DNA of 32,000 nt from positions 180,001 through 212,000 of the forward strand of contig NZ_LT963433.1 in the NCBI RefSeq assembly GCF_900199515.1. The letters are read 5' to 3'. The position numbers were made by a program, and so were the translations under genes. This document shows positions 27,137 through 32,000 of the stretch, piece after piece (position 1 is the stretch's first letter; every line of letters starts with the position of its first letter). The notes beneath the pieces are model-generated. The model searched no databases. It saw nothing but the letters and a program-made list of their open reading frames with translations, and had not been told where the DNA came from. Origin of the DNA: Massilicoli timonensis. Lineage in GTDB: Bacteria; Bacillota_I; Bacilli_A; Erysipelotrichales; Erysipelotrichaceae.

Positions 27137-30100
27137 TTATTTTGATAAGGAATTGCTGCTGTTCTTAAAATAGCAGAATGTAGCGCTAAGTCCTGCTAAG
27201 GCTCCAAACAATAACATCCAAAGCATAACTTGGTTTGTATCATCTCCGGTTGGAACACTAGGTACCAATTCATTTAGATAACGATAACTGTAAATATCCT
27301 TATCAGGATCTACAAGCTCGTCATTGAAGAACACACCTTCCTCATTGATCTCTACCTTCAGCACTTCATCCGATAATAAGTATCCCATAGGCGCCTGTGT
27401 TTCCTTGATGTAGACAATTCCATAAGGCAAATCAGTGAATGTGGCAGTTCCTGATTCCTGATCCGCATGAACAGTACGTACTTCTTTCTTACAATCTTCA
27501 TCTTCGTACATCGTGAATGCAAAGTCTTTGGATCTAATGAGCTGATCTGTCTGTGCATCCACTTTCTGTACTTGAATGTCAGTTAAGATCTGTTCATCTT
27601 TCATTACCACTTCCTGTACCTCGCCGGTGGCTTTTACCTCGAAGATCACATCTTCCGCTAAGTGATAGCCATAAGGTGCTGCTTCCTCATGTAAGCGATA
27701 CATGCCCGGTTCTAACATCGTGATCATATGCGCTTCCTCTGTCGATGTCCAGCGTTCTACGATATTCTTTGTCTTTTCACTTGTCAAAATGAAATCTGCA
27801 CCTGCCAATGCCTTACCGGTTGTCTCATCTACTTTCAAGATCTCTACTTTGGTATAGTCATTGGTCATTTCTACTTTCTGTGTTTCTGTTGTATTGGCTA
27901 CTGTGAATTTGATCTCTTTCTCGCTTAACATATAACCAAACGGTGCGATCGTTTCCTTTAAGGTATATTCCTTTCCGACTGTTAATCCCTTGATCAGGTG
28001 TGCTTCCTCTGTGCTGACCCATTCTTCTACTACCTTTCCGTTCTCATCTAGCACCTGCAAGGTTGCGCCCTCTAACTCTTTTCCGGTCGTCAGATCGGTT
28101 TTGGAAATAAGCACTTCTGTCTGTTTGTTCGTGAATTGTTTATGCACTTCATACACTGCTTTCTGATCATCTTCCAAATCAAATTTGATCTCATAAACCG
28201 TTTCATCTAAGACATAGCCATCCAGTGTTCTTGTTTCCTGTAAAAGATAAGAAGCTCCATCTGTTCCAAGCGGTAAGCCTACGATATGGATTTCGCCTAA
28301 TTCATTTGTCATATAGTAACCGTCTTCCGAAATATCCATCGATACCGGATCTCCTGCTTGATGGATCACTTTACCGTTCTGTGGATCGATGATATCATAC
28401 TTCGTTTTCAGCTGATACTGCACACCGCTTAATAACTCCTTTGTTTCCTCGTCTGCTTTCTCGATATGGATCTCTGCGGTTGGCTTTTCATCTTTTACTC
28501 TTACGATAATGAGTGGATCGCCGTCATCATCTGCTTCCATGATACTGCCTGTGATTGTGAAAGGGATCGGATCGGTATTGAGCAGGTATCCGTTTGGTGC
28601 GGTGATCTCTCTTGCTTCATACTCTCCTGCCAATAACATCAATGGCAGCGTTACTTGTCCTTTCTTATTGGTTGTGAAAGTATCGATCCAATCTTCGCCT
28701 ACTTTCTGTTTCACATATTGTTGTTTCTTCACGTTCCAGATCTTAAAGGAAGCATTTGATAATGTGATCGGTTCTTCTGTATCAGCATCCAGCTTGATCA
28801 AGCGTAGATATGCTTTCTTCCATTCGTTCTTGATGGCATAATGGAAAGACTGATCTTGGGTACTGATCGTAAACTCCACAGATCCTTCCATCGGGATCAG
28901 ATCGACATGCGGTGTCTTGGTCTGTCTCATGACATAATCTCCGGCTGCCAATTCACCTGAAGAGGCATAGCCGGTTTTATCTGTTTTTAAGATCGCATAT
29001 TCTTTTTTAGAATACGTATCTAAATGTTTTAATGCTTCCTCAAAAGATCCGTATTGATCTACATATTTCTTTAAGATGACTGTAAACTCGGCATTAGGTT
29101 CCGGTTCCAATACACTGGTTTCTTCATCGGAATACTTATGAATTTCGATCTTACCGGTAATGACTTGATCGGATACGGTCATATTCTGAGTTACGATGCT
29201 GACTGTTTGACCGCCATAAGTAAGATCTATATTGTATTTGTTTGGATCTAATTGATAGCCGGTAGGTGCTTGGATTTCTCGGATATAATAAGCGCCCAAG
29301 TTTTGATTGAGAAAACCTGCTGTATTACCTAAAGAATCGGTCGTTGTTTGTGCAACGAGGGTATCTTTTGCATGATAGAGCTTCCCGGAGATCGGATTGA
29401 CGATATTTTCTCTTGCATAGAGGCCATAGATGGCACCTGCAAGGGTAGCGTCTCCTTGTGCTGTACTTCCGGTATCGGCATCTTGTTTCTTCAATGTGAT
29501 ATTACCTTTTTGGATTGCATTTTTTGCATTGAAAGAAACGACATCATTTGCGATGATGGTAACCTTATAGATCTTACTATCTAAGACAAGATTAGCAGGG
29601 ACATTGGTTTCCTGCACATAGAGATCTTTAGGAAGCAGATCATCGATCTGTACGGTACCATCTGATCCTGTTTTATAGGTGCCGATCGGATCTGACATAT
29701 CGCTGTTATAGGATAATGCGAAAGATGTGTTAGGCACATAGTTTCCTTCTTCATCCTGTTTTGCGATCTTCAAAGATCCTTCTTTGTTTACCTGTAACTT
29801 CAATGTAATTGATAATGGGTCTATTTTATGAAATACGGCGGTGTCTTGTGCTCCTGATTTTCTATAAACCATAGTAGTACCCAAATATTCCTTAGCGATC
29901 CGGTTAAATGTTAGAGTAACATTTTCCGGAGCACTATCAGTTGGGGTAAGCGTAATGGAATTACCGTTGCGAACAACATTGACGCCATTCTGACTGCTTA
30001 CTTCTGCGAAGTCAGAGATTACACCGTTTAGATCGGTAATGGTAATACTTTCATTAACATTTACTACTGGATTTATATTATCAAAATTTGGTTTAATGTT

Positions 30101-30565
30101 TTGACGATTGATTGCTGCTTGTACTTGTGCTTTGTAAGTAGGGTAGTCAAAGCCGGTAATGGATACCGGTGTATGTCCCATTGCCTCATAGATCATATAT
30201 TGGGTTGTAAGACGCCAATGAGTAGAATCTGAATCATTTTTATGTTTATACCACCCATAATATGCAATCTGTTCCATCTGATCTTTTACTGAATGTGAAA
30301 ATTCTTCTACTGAATAATCATTCCCATCTGCAAATGGGGTAGTAGGATCCACACAAAACGCAACCTCTCCATTCGCCGTCATCCAAAAAGCATCACCCCA
30401 AGCCGGGAATCCATTTGACATTGTGAAGCGATAAGTATATCCCGGATAGTAACCGGTTCTGACTTGATTGTTATTAGCAGCTTTGGTGCTGATTGGTGTA
30501 AAACATGTAAAGATCATAAGCAGTACACTTATGATACTGAATATTTTTTTCTTAAGTTTATACAT
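27137..30565 (-). CDS. Large cell-surface adhesin: signal peptide, N-terminal Cys/Gln (thioester-like) domain, ~8 Cna-B/SpaA-type prealbumin-fold repeats, C-terminal SVPTGD sorting-like signal
   Basis: 1142 aa.
- Signal peptide: MYKLKKKIFSIISVLLMIFTCFTPISTKA.
- Repeated modules begin (I/L)x(I/L)xKxD... and end with ...E(T/I)xAPxGY(x)L motifs, for example KETIAPFGYML, HEEAAPYGYHL, KETQAPMGYLL, REITAPNGYLL, REIQAPTGYQL.
- The C-terminus is SVPTGD followed by a hydrophobic helix and a short polar tail containing a single Lys (YFKNSSNSLSK).
- RBS is GAGGAGGAAG. Confidence 0.85.
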   Translation of the reverse strand: MYKLKKKIFSIISVLLMIFTCFTPISTKAANNNQVRTGYYPGYTYRFTMSNGFPAWGDAFWMTANGEVAFCVDPTTPFADGNDYSVEEFSHSVKDQMEQIAYYGWYKHKNDSDSTHWRLTTQYMIYEAMGHTPVSITGFDYPTYKAQVQAAINRQNIKPNFDNINPVVNVNESITITDLNGVISDFAEVSSQNGVNVVRNGNSITLTPTDSAPENVTLTFNRIAKEYLGTTMVYRKSGAQDTAVFHKIDPLSITLKLQVNKEGSLKIAKQDEEGNYVPNTSFALSYNSDMSDPIGTYKTGSDGTVQIDDLLPKDLYVQETNVPANLVLDSKIYKVTIIANDVVSFNAKNAIQKGNITLKKQDADTGSTAQGDATLAGAIYGLYARENIVNPISGKLYHAKDTLVAQTTTDSLGNTAGFLNQNLGAYYIREIQAPTGYQLDPNKYNIDLTYGGQTVSIVTQNMTVSDQVITGKIEIHKYSDEETSVLEPEPNAEFTVILKKYVDQYGSFEEALKHLDTYSKKEYAILKTDKTGYASSGELAAGDYVMRQTKTPHVDLIPMEGSVEFTISTQDQSFHYAIKNEWKKAYLRLIKLDADTEEPITLSNASFKIWNVKKQQYVKQKVGEDWIDTFTTNKKGQVTLPLMLLAGEYEAREITAPNGYLLNTDPIPFTITGSIMEADDDGDPLIIVRVKDEKPTAEIHIEKADEETKELLSGVQYQLKTKYDIIDPQNGKVIHQAGDPVSMDISEDGYYMTNELGEIHIVGLPLGTDGASYLLQETRTLDGYVLDETVYEIKFDLEDDQKAVYEVHKQFTNKQTEVLISKTDLTTGKELEGATLQVLDENGKVVEEWVSTEEAHLIKGLTVGKEYTLKETIAPFGYMLSEKEIKFTVANTTETQKVEMTNDYTKVEILKVDETTGKALAGADFILTSEKTKNIVERWTSTEEAHMITMLEPGMYRLHEEAAPYGYHLAEDVIFEVKATGEVQEVVMKDEQILTDIQVQKVDAQTDQLIRSKDFAFTMYEDEDCKKEVRTVHADQESGTATFTDLPYGIVYIKETQAPMGYLLSDEVLKVEINEEGVFFNDELVDPDKDIYSYRYLNELVPSVPTGDDTNQVMLWMLLFGALAGLSATFCYFKNSSNSLSK

Positions 30566-30627
30566 ATTTCTTCCTCCTCATCATTGTTATTCGTGCTTTC
30601 TTTTCTTAATCCTAAAACTTTTTCATT

Positions 30628-30643
30628 TTTTCTACGTAGAAAA
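30628..30643. promoter_or_regulatory. Perfect 16-bp palindrome TTTTCTACGTAGAAAA in the adhesin upstream region (candidate operator); half-site copy TACGTAGAAAA at 30692-30702
   Basis: Palindrome verified base by base (centre between 30635 and 30636). The 11-nt TACGTAGAAAA recurs 59 bp away, inside the spacer of a TATAAT (-10 at 30681-30686, minus strand). Confidence 0.4.
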
Positions 30644-30816
30644 GGCAGCCATAAGACTGCCTATTAAATATAGTATTAGGATTATAGATTTTACGTAGAA
30701 AACAAATAACAATATTTTTATTCTGATCATAGGTATTACATAAGGACTGCGCATTCCTTAACACCTTTCACATTCCGGGGGATCTTTGTTTTTCATTGTT
30801 TCACGTCCTTTCTTGT

Positions 30817-30847
30817 AAAAGAAAAGAGCAACTGTTCTGATTGCTCT
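30817..30847 (-). terminator. Rho-independent terminator (minus strand) insulating the adhesin promoter region
   Basis: GAGCAA (30826-30831) pairs with TTGCTC (30841-30846). On the minus strand TTTTCTTTT follows. Confidence 0.55.
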
Positions 30848-30858
30848 AAATTAAACTA

Positions 30859-30887
30859 TTGATATTTTCATATGACTGGCATATAAT
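30859..30887 (+). promoter_or_regulatory. Strong sigma-A-type promoter (TTGATA-17-TATAAT) driving a short plus-strand RNA
   Basis: -35 TTGATA (30859-30864), an exact 17-nt spacer, then -10 TATAAT (30882-30887). There is no protein-coding ORF downstream. Confidence 0.6.
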
Positions 30888-30891
30888 ATGG

Positions 30892-30906
30892 GTGTAAGTG
30901 ATAGGT
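30892..30906. repeat. Direct repeat copy 1 (GTGTAAGTGATAGGT)
   Basis: Identical 15-mer at 31056-31070. Looser similarity continues for ~8 more nt (AGGTGGTGC vs AGGTAGCGGTAC). Confidence 0.9.
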
Positions 30907-30955
30907 GGTGCAAACTACCAAAAGAAAAGAGAGAGTTGGCGCTCTCTCTTTTTTT
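30894..30955 (+). ncRNA. Candidate small RNA (~62 nt to terminator T1; ~105 nt if read through to T2 at 30998)
   Basis: The predicted TSS is 6-8 nt after the -10. The 5' end is the 15-nt repeat GUGUAAGUGAUAGGU. A hairpin GGUGGU-GCAA-ACUACC (GNRA loop) follows, then the terminator AGAGAGAG-UUGGCG-CUCUCUCU + U7 (30928-30955). Confidence 0.45.
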
Positions 30956-30969
30956 AGTACCACTACCTT

Positions 30970-30998
30970 GAAAGACTAGATAACTAGTCTTTCTTTTT
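30970..30998 (+). terminator. Second plus-strand Rho-independent terminator (T2)
   Basis: GAAAGACTAG (30970-30979), loop ATAA, CTAGTCTTTC (30984-30993), then TTTTT (30994-30998). The stop codons of both minus-strand small ORFs lie inside this hairpin. Confidence 0.6.
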
Positions 30999-31098
30999 CA
31001 ACTCTACAACGATTAAGTAGAGGATCAATAATTCGATTATTGCCTCTAAATTCATGTGTAAGTGATAGGTAGCGGTACATCAGGAAAGTATCATTCAT
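30976..31098 (-). CDS. Small ORF, 40 aa (MNDTFLMYRYLSLTHEFRGNNRIIDPLLNRCRVEKERLVI), unknown function
   Basis: ATG at 31098 lies 8 nt after GGAGG (31107-31111). The ORF is below the 60-aa ORF-track cutoff and matches no family I recognise. Confidence 0.3.
   Translation of the reverse strand: MNDTFLMYRYLSLTHEFRGNNRIIDPLLNRCRVEKERLVI
30984..31055 (-). CDS. Small hydrophobic ORF, 23 aa (MNLEAIIELLILYLIVVELKKKD), candidate type I toxin-like peptide
   Basis: ATG 31053-31055 directly abuts repeat copy 2. The peptide has a hydrophobic core and a charged KKKD tail. No Shine-Dalgarno is present, so coding status is speculative. Confidence 0.2.
   Translation of the reverse strand: MNLEAIIELLILYLIVVELKKKD
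31056..31070. repeat. Direct repeat copy 2 (GTGTAAGTGATAGGT)
   Basis: Identical to 30892-30906, 164 bp away. On the minus-strand RNA it reads ACCUAUCACUUACAC, immediately 5' of an AUG (31053-31055). Confidence 0.9.
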
Positions 31099-31117
31099 GA
31101 CTAATACCTCCGCAGCA

Positions 31118-31146
31118 ATCATAACATAGATCGCTTCTGCACTCAA
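31118..31146 (-). promoter_or_regulatory. Candidate minus-strand promoter (TTGAGT-17-TGtTATGAT) upstream of the small ORFs
   Basis: -35 TTGAGT (31141-31146), a 17-nt spacer, then an extended -10 (hexamer 31118-31123). The predicted TSS falls at or next to the GGAGG, which weakens either the promoter call or the RBS call. Confidence 0.35.
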
Positions 31147-31179
31147 TATGATCTATTCACAAAAGAAAATCTGTTACTT

Positions 31180-31875
31180 CTAATACTCTGGGAAATATAC
31201 ATCCCAAATTCCTTCTGCTACTTCGCCACACGAATCAAGTACAGTCCCAGTTCCCATACTATATCTTGGCCATCCATACCAAGGACTATTTGGATCTGCT
31301 AATTGTGCCTCTGCCCATGCACTTGCTTCTGCTTGACTGTTAAACCACATTCCGGAATTACCTAAGTTTGTATATGTCCCATTAGGCACACATACATTCT
31401 GTGCCGGTGGAGTAGGGGAAGTAGTATTTCCACCGGTAGATCCTGTTGCAGTAGATCCATTGGATCCGCCGGTATTGGCAGCCGGTGGTGTAACGGCAGG
31501 CGTTTGGGTTGTCGGTGTTTGTGTTTCTGTTTGTTCCTCTGCCGGTGCCTCTTCAGGAGTTTGGGTATTTGCGGTTTCTTCCTTCGCTTTTACATTGACG
31601 GTCAGCTCATAAGTTTTCTTCTTTCCGTCCTCGCCGGTTACCACATATTTCAACACCTGTTCTCCTGCTTCAGAAGTATCCAGCTTCGGATATTTCACTT
31701 TGCCTTCTACACTCTTTATGAAGTCTTTTACATCCACTTCATCGCCCTGCATCACTTCTACTTCTTTATCTTTGAATGTCAGAGAAGCAGCTGCTTTCTT
31801 TTCCTCTTTTTCAGAGCAGCCTGCCAATGTTATGCACATCATCAGTGTTAATAGTAGTGTCGTTGCTTTTTTCAT
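31180..31875 (-). CDS. Lipoprotein of unknown function (Ig-like N-domain, Thr/Pro-rich linker, Cys-containing C-domain)
   Basis: 231 aa. The signal peptide has a lipobox: MKKATTLLLTLMMCITLAGC. A low-complexity TQTPTTQTPAVTPPA linker follows. RBS is GAGGGAGGAAAAACC-ATG. Confidence 0.8.
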   Translation of the reverse strand: MKKATTLLLTLMMCITLAGCSEKEEKKAAASLTFKDKEVEVMQGDEVDVKDFIKSVEGKVKYPKLDTSEAGEQVLKYVVTGEDGKKKTYELTVNVKAKEETANTQTPEEAPAEEQTETQTPTTQTPAVTPPAANTGGSNGSTATGSTGGNTTSPTPPAQNVCVPNGTYTNLGNSGMWFNSQAEASAWAEAQLADPNSPWYGWPRYSMGTGTVLDSCGEVAEGIWDVYFPEY

Positions 31876-31888
31876 GGTTTTTCCTCCC

Positions 31889-32000
31889 TCATCTTATTTT
31901 TTGTAGTTCTTCCAGTAAAAATCTTTTTTTATTTAACTTAAACAGCATTTTAGCCATATCCCAAATGAATAATGCTGCACCAAAAATTATACTTGCCATT
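31889..32000 (-). CDS. 3' end of an upstream gene (or a 36-aa ORF), hydrophobic segment then basic tail; truncated by window edge
   Basis: The minus-strand frame reads (..)MASIIFGAALFIWDMAKMLFKLNKKRFLLEELQKIR*. The stop TGA 31889-31891 overlaps the lipoprotein RBS. The frame is open to the window end. Confidence 0.3.
   Translation of the reverse strand, partial: MASIIFGAALFIWDMAKMLFKLNKKRFLLEELQKIR

Follow-up and report, generated by a model that had tools for sequence, protein, structure and literature searches.

What does the spacer between a lipoprotein gene and an adhesin gene encode in the 32,000-nucleotide stretch of contig NZ_LT963433.1 analysed here (the window), where two promoters face each other across a terminator? 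We found that window positions 30817-31154 are probably a single self-contained module resembling the type I toxin-antitoxin (TA) systems, with the architecture of pAD1 par and with a messenger RNA (mRNA), a small RNA (sRNA) and a peptide toxin predicted from the sequence. An initial annotation had listed the promoters, two terminators (T1 and T2), a 15-nt repeat and open reading frames (ORFs) for peptides of 23 and 40 aa, and all of these were present where it had placed them. There is one copy of the module in the window, and no second copy was found there. It is made up of the following elements:

30859-30887, plus strand: promoter of the antitoxin sRNA, TTGATA-17-TATAAT (promoter scan, 11/12 matches)
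30893-30955, plus strand: predicted antitoxin sRNA of ~60 nt, with inferred ends
31118-31146, minus strand: promoter of the toxin mRNA, -35 TTGAGT (31146-31141), 17-nt spacer, TGn-extended -10 TATGAT (31123-31118) (promoter scan)
30919-31111, minus strand: predicted toxin mRNA of ~190 nt, from about GGAGG to the T1 U-tract, with inferred ends
31084-31111, minus strand: predicted 5' stem-loop, GGAGG (31111-31107) paired with CUUUCC and the AUG of the long ORF in the loop
30976-31098, minus strand: 40-codon ORF MNDTFLMYRYLSLTHEFRGNNRIIDPLLNRCRVEKERLVI, GGAGG-8 nt-ATG, a possible mok-like leader overlapping the 23-codon ORF in another frame
31067-31078, minus strand: 5' strand of the long-range helix H2, GUACCGCUACCU, pairing with 30957-30968
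31056-31070, minus strand: mRNA copy of the repeat, ACCUAUCACUUACAC, target of the sRNA 5' end, ending at -1 of the peptide AUG
30984-31055, minus strand: 23-codon ORF MNLEAIIELLILYLIVVELKKKD, the putative toxin, with its ATG directly after the repeat and its stop inside T2
30970-30993: T2 hairpin, a plus-strand terminator and, on the minus strand, a hairpin holding both stop codons
30957-30968, minus strand: 3' strand of H2, AGGUAGUGGUAC on the mRNA, pairing with 31067-31078
30922-30955, both strands: T1, a bidirectional intrinsic terminator common to both RNAs (called at 30925-30952 and 30928-30947)
30817-30847, minus strand: second terminator at the downstream edge of the module (called at 30847-30825)

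Recognition repeat and selected peptide

There are just two exact copies of the 15-mer GTGTAAGTGATAGGT, at 30892-30906 and 31056-31070, so the perfect direct repeat of the initial annotation was recovered at both positions; by our own estimate, the chance expectation of a second exact 15-mer within about 600 bp is roughly 2e-4. The predicted duplex between sRNA and mRNA extends to about 19 bp including G-U pairs and ends at the peptide AUG. An end-to-end alignment was made of about 10 related modules, which belong to different genera and replicons; both -10 elements, the GGAGG, the long-ORF ATG, the 23-codon ORF, T2, T1 and the position of the repeat are conserved in it. One repeat copy always starts 6-8 nt past the sRNA -10 and the other abuts the peptide ATG. 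The repeat sequence itself differs between modules and is matched within each, which gives five recognition types:

window type: ACCTATCACTTACAC
L016: CCCAGTTCTTACA
L022: ATCACTCAATTCTTAC
L024 and L025 (one type in common): CTACyACTTyTCTGTACA
L026: CCATCACTTTATACA

Covariation was scored in six variants as a 19-pair helix between the sRNA 5' end and mRNA positions -19 to +1 of the peptide AUG. In this intermolecular helix 94.7% of cells were paired and 12/19 pairs had changed on both sides; 0/500 shuffles reached the observed value (a control that overstates significance, the variants being few and related), and slid registers paired at 30-46%. Cognate duplexes had predicted energies of -25.4 to -32.2 kcal/mol, against a mean of -16.3 for non-cognate pairs and -15.2 +/- 2.7 for shuffled sRNA; the RNA-RNA pairing that had been proposed as a check on the two predicted RNAs thus came out far stronger for the cognate duplexes. 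Variation between modules is concentrated in three segments, namely both repeat copies and the partner strand of the long-range helix. Among the differences between the two repeat copies within a module, nine are G-U-compatible (mRNA G/U opposite sRNA U/G), one is the opposite transition and two are transversions at the distal end. Because these differences are biased 9 to 1 towards wobble-compatible changes, they point to selection on RNA pairing and not to plain DNA homogenisation.

We also calculated the ratio of non-synonymous to synonymous change (pN/pS) in each frame over the same 63 bases, with substitutions summed over pairs:

23-aa frame: pN/pS 0.10 (159 synonymous, 58 non-synonymous)
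40-aa frame: pN/pS 3.58 (15 synonymous, 202 non-synonymous)
third frame: pN/pS 0.47 (67.5 synonymous, 149.5 non-synonymous)

Judged by these ratios, 0.10 versus 3.58 and 0.47, the 23-aa peptide is the selected product of the locus. Conservation of the repeats and small ORFs had been named as a point on which the initial annotation could fail; the repeat copies proved to covary and the 23-aa frame to be under strong purifying selection. The consensus of all peptide variants is M[ND][LI]E[ATSP]I[IL][EQ]LL[IV]LYLI[VI]VELKKKD, in which a hydrophobic helix is followed, as in Fst and Ldr, by a charged C-terminal tail, and the ELKKKD of this tail is invariant. The best 15-residue hydropathy window is 2.4-2.6 across the variants, and the 2.59 of the window peptide is comparable to the 2.70 of Fst (also over 15 residues). 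The overlapping 40-codon ORF has a conserved Shine-Dalgarno sequence (SD) and ATG with a variable spacer of 6-9 nt, and is open for 40-41 codons in all variants. When the peptide was kept and its codons were recoded synonymously at random, 35-65% of the recodings left this long frame open, which makes its openness weak evidence for a function. The idea that ribosomes pass from the long ORF to the toxin frame by programmed frameshifting was also considered and was dropped for lack of evidence.

Promoters, terminators and predicted RNA folds

Behind the plus-strand promoter we found only ORFs of fewer than 32 codons, such as those of 27 aa at 30888-30971 and 24 aa at 30905-30979, in keeping with the original description of a near-consensus promoter with no ORF behind it. 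The -10 of this promoter is TATAAT or TATACT, mostly with TGn, and has the same position in all variants. The opposing promoter, TTGAGT-17-TATGAT, was likewise called on the minus strand at 31146-31118, with TG ahead of its -10. The aligned position of this mRNA -10 (TGnTAnnAT) is constant in all other variants except L024 (TGCAATAAT, TGnAAnnAT), and its distance to GGAGG is 6-8 nt in all variants. Both predicted promoters of the window are therefore convergent, as described for par-like loci (PMC7472228).

T1 corresponds to the inverted repeat I3 (30922-30935 / 30942-30955). It had been proposed as a bidirectional terminator shared by the two transcripts, and it was called on both strands in the window; its helix (helix 7 of the consensus mRNA structure) has four covarying pairs, and it was also called as a terminator in L024 and L025. 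The two transcribed forms of T1 are fully complementary and, since the terminator is shared, the 3' ends of both RNAs are complementary. T2 (helices 5-6) is 100% paired in the mRNA consensus and was also called in L024. Its plus-strand U-tract is the complement of the KKK codons: the KKK-D-stop codons (AAAAAGAAAGACTAG, window 30984-30998) also form the 5' arm of the T2 hairpin, and their complement on the opposite strand is its U-tract. The encoding of a peptide tail and a back-up sRNA terminator on the same bases may be the reason for the invariance of ELKKKD. The motif of T1 that had been noted at the neighbouring terminator is indeed duplicated, as a AAAAGAAAAGAG-type motif at 30816-30825 and 30919-30928. 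Overall, terminator-like sites are abundant in 30000-32000, with 9 sites against 1.2 +/- 1.2 in shuffles.

The T1 loop varies between modules. The YUNR-like UUGG is found in the window type, where the sRNA-sense loop has it, and in L023, where it is in the mRNA-sense loop; it is absent from the CGGCAA/UUGCCG loops of the other types. Not all par homologues carry the YUNR U-turn motif (PMC7472228). In L023 (760-775) the T1 loop is inverted (GTTGGCG versus GCGCCAAC; compare L016 and window 30936-30941) with the stems unchanged, so that it is the mRNA, and no longer the sRNA, that carries UUGG; recombination across the palindrome seems to have flipped the loop.

The consensus structure of seven distinct toxin mRNAs contains 64 pairs, with 97.3% of cells paired and 11 compensatory pairs, and 0/500 shuffles equalled it. 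Its 5' stem-loop (helix 1) is 95.7% paired with one covarying pair. The SD within this stem-loop has a probability of being unpaired, P(unpaired), of 0.00-0.05 in five of six variants and 0.23 in L022, and the AUG in its loop has a value of 0.76-1.0. Sequestration of the SD is a feature of par-like loci, yet the SD that is hidden here precedes the 40-codon ORF and not the toxin ORF. The long-range helix H2 has 12 pairs, of which four have changed on both sides, and is 97.6% paired; in L016, for example, GUACC/GGUAC has become GUGCC/GGCAC. A helix that buries the peptide AUG, an internal hairpin, T2 with both stop codons and T1 complete the predicted fold. The initial annotation had singled out a third segment related to the repeat, GTACCACTACCT (30957-30968), as an alternative pairing partner for the 5' region of the sRNA. 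Its complementarity to the region 5' of the repeat holds; its main role appears to be a different one on the minus strand, where the predicted fold makes it the 3' strand of the covarying long-range mRNA helix.

In the window the predicted sRNA consists of a single-stranded 5' seed with the repeat (30892-30906), a GNRA hairpin (30904-30919), an A-rich linker and T1. All eight sRNAs that were folded follow this order, the hairpin always being small and the 5' seed about 9-12 nt long, and the P(unpaired) of their 5' 10 nt is 0.82-0.99. The window, L016/L023 and L022 types have a GNRA tetraloop on this hairpin.

One contig carries further sRNA-like units. In L026 (370-640; Logan contig, ERR11457660), two or three of them follow the module in the same orientation, each with TATAAT, a small hairpin and a terminator that TTTTCTTTT follows; their ~20-nt 5' seeds differ, and the toxin ORF is absent from them. 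Their nhmmer matches are weak, with E 2.4e-4 and 3.7. These units may be orphan antitoxins or remnants of deleted modules.

Distribution and genomic setting of the module

Relatives of the module were found by an exhaustive phmmer search with the 40-aa ORF, which recovered unannotated 40-aa homologues, and by a degenerate-pattern scan of species-representative genomes. A word-index search with the 40-aa ORF gave one protein only. A first peptide pattern, EAIIELLILYLI, was too strict: JGI metagenomes gave 1 match, species-representative genomes and viral contigs 0; a C-terminal peptide pattern matched two genomes and had no matches in viral contigs. Cluster look-ups placed further members on dozens of metagenome contigs. 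The modules that we collected come from Massilicoli-like metagenome contigs, Thomasclavelia cocleata DSM 1551, a Bacilli metagenome-assembled genome (MAG; a Rep_3 plasmid fragment) and Logan contigs. The settings of the principal relatives are:

L022: metagenome contig of 576 bp, without neighbouring genes
L023: metagenome contig, where the module comes straight after a lipoprotein gene and is followed by the adhesin-leader sequence also seen in the window
L024: Thomasclavelia cocleata DSM 1551 (Coprobacillaceae), contig NZ_FOIN01000003.1, module at about 3650-3985 of L024, with a MobL relaxase gene on one side and a type IV secretion system (T4SS) coupling-protein gene on the other
L025: Bacilli MAG, 3.4-kb contig, adjoining a Rep_3 initiator and 22-bp iterons
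L026-L031: Logan contigs, with L030 near a YafQ/ParE toxin gene

At the end of the L025 contig (3300-3421) tandem 22-bp iterons (TATGTATATAGGTACACATGTT) lie beside the Rep_3 initiator gene, which indicates that this copy of the module is on a fragment of a small theta-type plasmid; no terminal overlap that would show the L025 contig to be circular was found. The module is absent from the homologous lipoprotein-adhesin spacer of Massilicoli timonensis L012 (293 bp) and of two other lineages, L008 and L011 (115-146 bp). In L016 it lies downstream of a paralogous lipoprotein gene and is flanked by two terminator copies ending in TTGCTCTTTTCTTTTAC. Together, the empty spacers of relatives and the flanks in L016 identify the module as an indel of roughly 320-340 bp. 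The second terminator of the window (30817-30847) duplicates the one that follows the lipoprotein gene at the empty site. The two terminator copies of L016 (4178-4221 and 4515-4547) share the same final 17 bp, of which the empty site of M. timonensis L012 has one copy, and this duplicated flanking terminator could be a target duplication or a recombination joint. When L016 2501-4177 is compared with window 31180-31875, the lipoprotein gene is present in L016 as two tandem paralogues (239 aa and 229 aa). Since the module follows a different lipoprotein paralogue in L016 than in the window, the surface-protein locus appears to be recombinationally active. The absence of the module from the spacer of relatives and its presence on a Rep_3 plasmid fragment and a conjugative element fit a mobile or accessory module with a role in addiction or stabilisation.

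The genes on both sides of the module in the window belong to this surface-protein locus:

30566-31179: spacer between the lipoprotein and adhesin genes, 614 bp
31875-31180, minus strand: lipoprotein gene
30565-27137, minus strand: adhesin gene, 1142 aa, with thioester and SpaA domains

The lipoprotein has 72% identity to its counterpart in M. timonensis (Erysipelotrichaceae). Downstream of the module, the adhesin leader (window 30566-30816) is a segment of ~250 bp that is nearly identical in M. timonensis, a species without the module. It contains a 12-codon ORF (MKNKDPPECERC, about 30785-30747, minus strand) with an AAAGGA SD, and the palindrome TTCTACGTAGAA occurs in it twice (30628-30641 and 30689-30702), bracketing a GC-rich hairpin (about 30646-30665). 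The palindromes and hairpin may act on the adhesin gene as an operator or attenuator. Rfam STnc50 matches this hairpin below threshold (E 0.008, 30 bits versus a gathering score of 55), probably by chance. A role of the module itself as a riboswitch or attenuator of the adhesin gene was dropped for lack of evidence; elsewhere the module was found without the adhesin.

Searches of family databases returned no known system. Rfam identified no family in the window at the gathering score, gave only chance-level hairpin matches in the module region at E<=10, and found nothing within the module in five homologous loci at E<=0.1. Neither peptide had a match in Pfam or NCBIfam at E<=10. There was no match to the module in plasmid and phage collections by blastn and tblastn; small matches in Lactiplantibacillus plantarum plasmids were to a generic terminator and were dismissed. 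A literature search for type I TA systems in Erysipelotrichia (Erysipelotrichaceae, Erysipelatoclostridium) did not find any.

Interpretation and relation to known systems

How would such a module work? The ~190-nt minus-strand mRNA would encode the 23-residue hydrophobic peptide with its ELKKKD tail, which we presume to be a membrane toxin. In the closed state of this mRNA, which is supported by covariation in the predicted fold, the 5' stem-loop hides the only SD, the 5'-3' helix closes the coding domain and the peptide AUG is buried. Toxin translation would probably occur via ribosomes that load on the SD-bearing leader ORF, as described for hok on mok (PMC4147584); by this analogy we infer a hok/mok-like dependence of the toxin ORF on the 40-codon ORF. 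The ~60-nt plus-strand sRNA would pair through its single-stranded 5' end with ~19 bp of the mRNA up to the peptide AUG and block initiation there, and the duplex may be cut by a double-stranded RNA nuclease.

Several findings weigh against a TA module of this kind. The peptide has only 23 aa, with three Glu residues in or beside its hydrophobic stretch, and its net side-chain charge is -2 to 0 (-1 in the window copy). None of the variants has an SD for the toxin ORF, and in low-G+C Gram-positive bacteria an SD is usually needed. The initial annotation had correctly reported this lack of an SD, which it regarded as a weakness of the single copy that it had seen; the property is conserved throughout the family and thus calls for an explanation, not for its dismissal as a defect of the window copy. 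Folding of the full-length mRNA leaves the sRNA target mostly paired, with P(unpaired) 0.08-0.24, so that binding of the sRNA would have to be co-transcriptional or to follow processing. The -35 elements are not conserved, and a simple scan misses the promoters of L024 and L025, homologues without a good -35. The small number and relatedness of the variants, mentioned above, belong here as well. Finally, the 1085-bp metagenome contig L017 (OLOW01043823.1, 1-340) combines an mRNA segment and long-range helix of the L016 type with an sRNA seed of the window type, and its predicted duplex reaches only -17.6 to -19.1 kcal/mol. The junction of the two types falls within the identical T1 segment, and L017 may be a chimera made in assembly or else a natural recombinant whose antitoxin does not match.

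Three other explanations of the locus were weighed against the TA reading. It could encode an antisense-regulated small membrane protein with a benign function, which would leave the RNA logic unchanged and would not be a TA or addiction element. The acidic to neutral peptide with its three Glu residues, its lack of similarity to known toxin families and the chromosomal position of the window copy beside surface-protein genes all favour such a protein, which we nevertheless consider unlikely: the module moves independently of its neighbours and is found in addiction-type contexts (the Rep_3 fragment, the relaxase and coupling-protein genes, and ParE/YafQ), the layers by which it would suppress translation (a hidden SD, a buried AUG, antisense RNA across the start) are of the kind described for type I toxins (PMC7472228, PMC4147584), and its diversification into orthogonal recognition types fits pairs that avoid cross-talk. 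It is less probable still that the real product is the basic 40-aa protein with its strong SD, whose mRNA the sRNA would block or destabilise, the 23-aa ORF being a by-product. The GGAGG at 6-9 nt from the ATG is kept in all variants, the ORF of 40-41 codons is open in all of them, and gene callers predicted the 40-aa ORF in several metagenomes. On the same bases, however, the pN/pS of 3.58 in this frame stands against 0.10 in the 23-aa frame, and replacements in the long frame are radical (LNR / LDY / LDC / PYR / SNC) where the short frame keeps LYLI synonymously. The conservation of the 40-aa N-terminus coincides with RNA helices, the openness of the long frame is not improbable given the peptide, and the sRNA duplex adjoins the 23-aa AUG, 24-42 nt downstream of the 40-aa AUG.

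Least credible of all is an absence of RNA function, with repeats and hairpins that are scars of mobile elements or terminator duplication and are kept alike through gene conversion. The module is indeed an indel relative to close relatives, with a duplicated terminator at its flanks, and the inverted T1 loop of L023 shows recombination at the palindrome; against scars speak the changing sequence of the repeat in a module whose two -10 elements, ORF, fold and repeat layout are retained across genera, the wobble-compatible bias of 9 to 1 between repeat copies and the purifying selection on the 23-aa frame. A TA module remains our preferred reading.

A bolder proposal, which we put forward tentatively and think rather less likely to be right than wrong, is that these modules form a new Erysipelotrichia-specific family of type I TA systems, with an SD-less toxin expressed through a nested leader, an orthogonal specificity cassette and orphan sRNA arrays that serve in anti-addiction or immunity. 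If this were true, an SD-less 23-codon ORF would be translated only through an out-of-frame leader, bringing hok/mok logic into a Gram-positive par-type layout; the ~19-nt recognition duplex would be a fast-evolving cassette giving mutually orthogonal pairs, with five types so far; and orphan sRNA arrays such as those of L026 could act against plasmids and conjugative elements that enter the cell. Homology searches have difficulty in finding type I TA systems, and Erysipelotrichia are a common gut class. The natural compensatory variants are ready-made specificity mutants, and T. cocleata DSM 1551 is a cultured carrier. A conserved SD-less toxin ORF nested in an SD-bearing ORF raises the subject of SD-less internal starts in Gram-positive bacteria and the question of whether mok-like coupling evolved independently. 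In addition, the module marks the backbones of plasmids and conjugative elements in gut Firmicutes and could supply orthogonal RNA-controlled kill switches.

Among known systems, the closest in architecture are par of Enterococcus faecalis pAD1 (RNA I/Fst and RNA II) and the par-like SprA1/SprA1AS locus of Staphylococcus aureus (PepA1) (PMC7472228). Par-like loci are characterised by convergent promoters, a bidirectional terminator, repeat-derived complementarity at the initiation region and sequestration of the SD and 5' end (PMC7472228). The par-like logic seen by the initial annotation, that of convergent transcription, a shared bidirectional terminator and complementarity in trans at the toxin start, is borne out, and the layout is kept across genera and replicons. 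As in pAD1 par, the promoters are convergent, the bidirectional intrinsic terminator is shared and gives complementary 3' stem-loops, an intramolecular 5' stem-loop sequesters an SD, a helix involves the mRNA 5' region, and a small hydrophobic peptide with a charged C-terminal tail is encoded; as with par loci, copies are found on plasmids and mobile elements as well as on chromosomes. The likeness to par(Fst) is thus one of architecture and does not extend to membership in the Fst/RNA II sequence families, for which there was no Pfam or Rfam match, no PXXXG and no conserved Trp. Neither G nor W nor PXXXG is present in any of the five peptide variants, and the module peptide has 23 aa, unlike Fst with 33 aa and its PXXXG(C) and conserved Trp. 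The direct repeats do provide complementarity over the toxin start, but there is a single repeat of 15-19 nt here and not DRa plus DRb as in par. Further differences from par are that the sequestered SD belongs to the overlapping 40-codon ORF while the toxin ORF is SD-less, that the stabilising helix joins the 5' to the 3' region whereas the par helix is local and upstream, and that the YUNR loop motif is present in some variants only. Going by sequence comparisons, we regard the module as a previously undescribed family that is built like par yet is not a member of the Fst family.

The module also resembles hok/mok/sok of plasmid R1, a plasmid addiction module, and the proposed ldrX leader of ldrD, in that a leader ORF with an SD overlaps the toxin ORF (PMC4147584). 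As in hok, the full-length mRNA would be closed by long-range 5'-3' pairing and controlled by an antisense RNA (PMC4147584). Sok, in contrast, overlaps the mok initiation region in cis, whereas the sRNA described here is convergent, repeat-based and beside the toxin AUG; Hok is a Gram-negative protein of ~50 aa without sequence similarity to the present peptide, and the coupling proposed here is by analogy. The txpA/RatA and bsrG/SR4 systems of the Firmicute Bacillus subtilis are similar in having a convergent mRNA and antisense RNA with a 3' overlap and a small hydrophobic toxin. Their antitoxins work mainly through long 3' overlaps, as covered in part by PMC3834814. In the present module, unlike these systems, the two RNAs overlap in the terminator only, and their specific contact would be the 5' repeat-derived duplex at the start codon.

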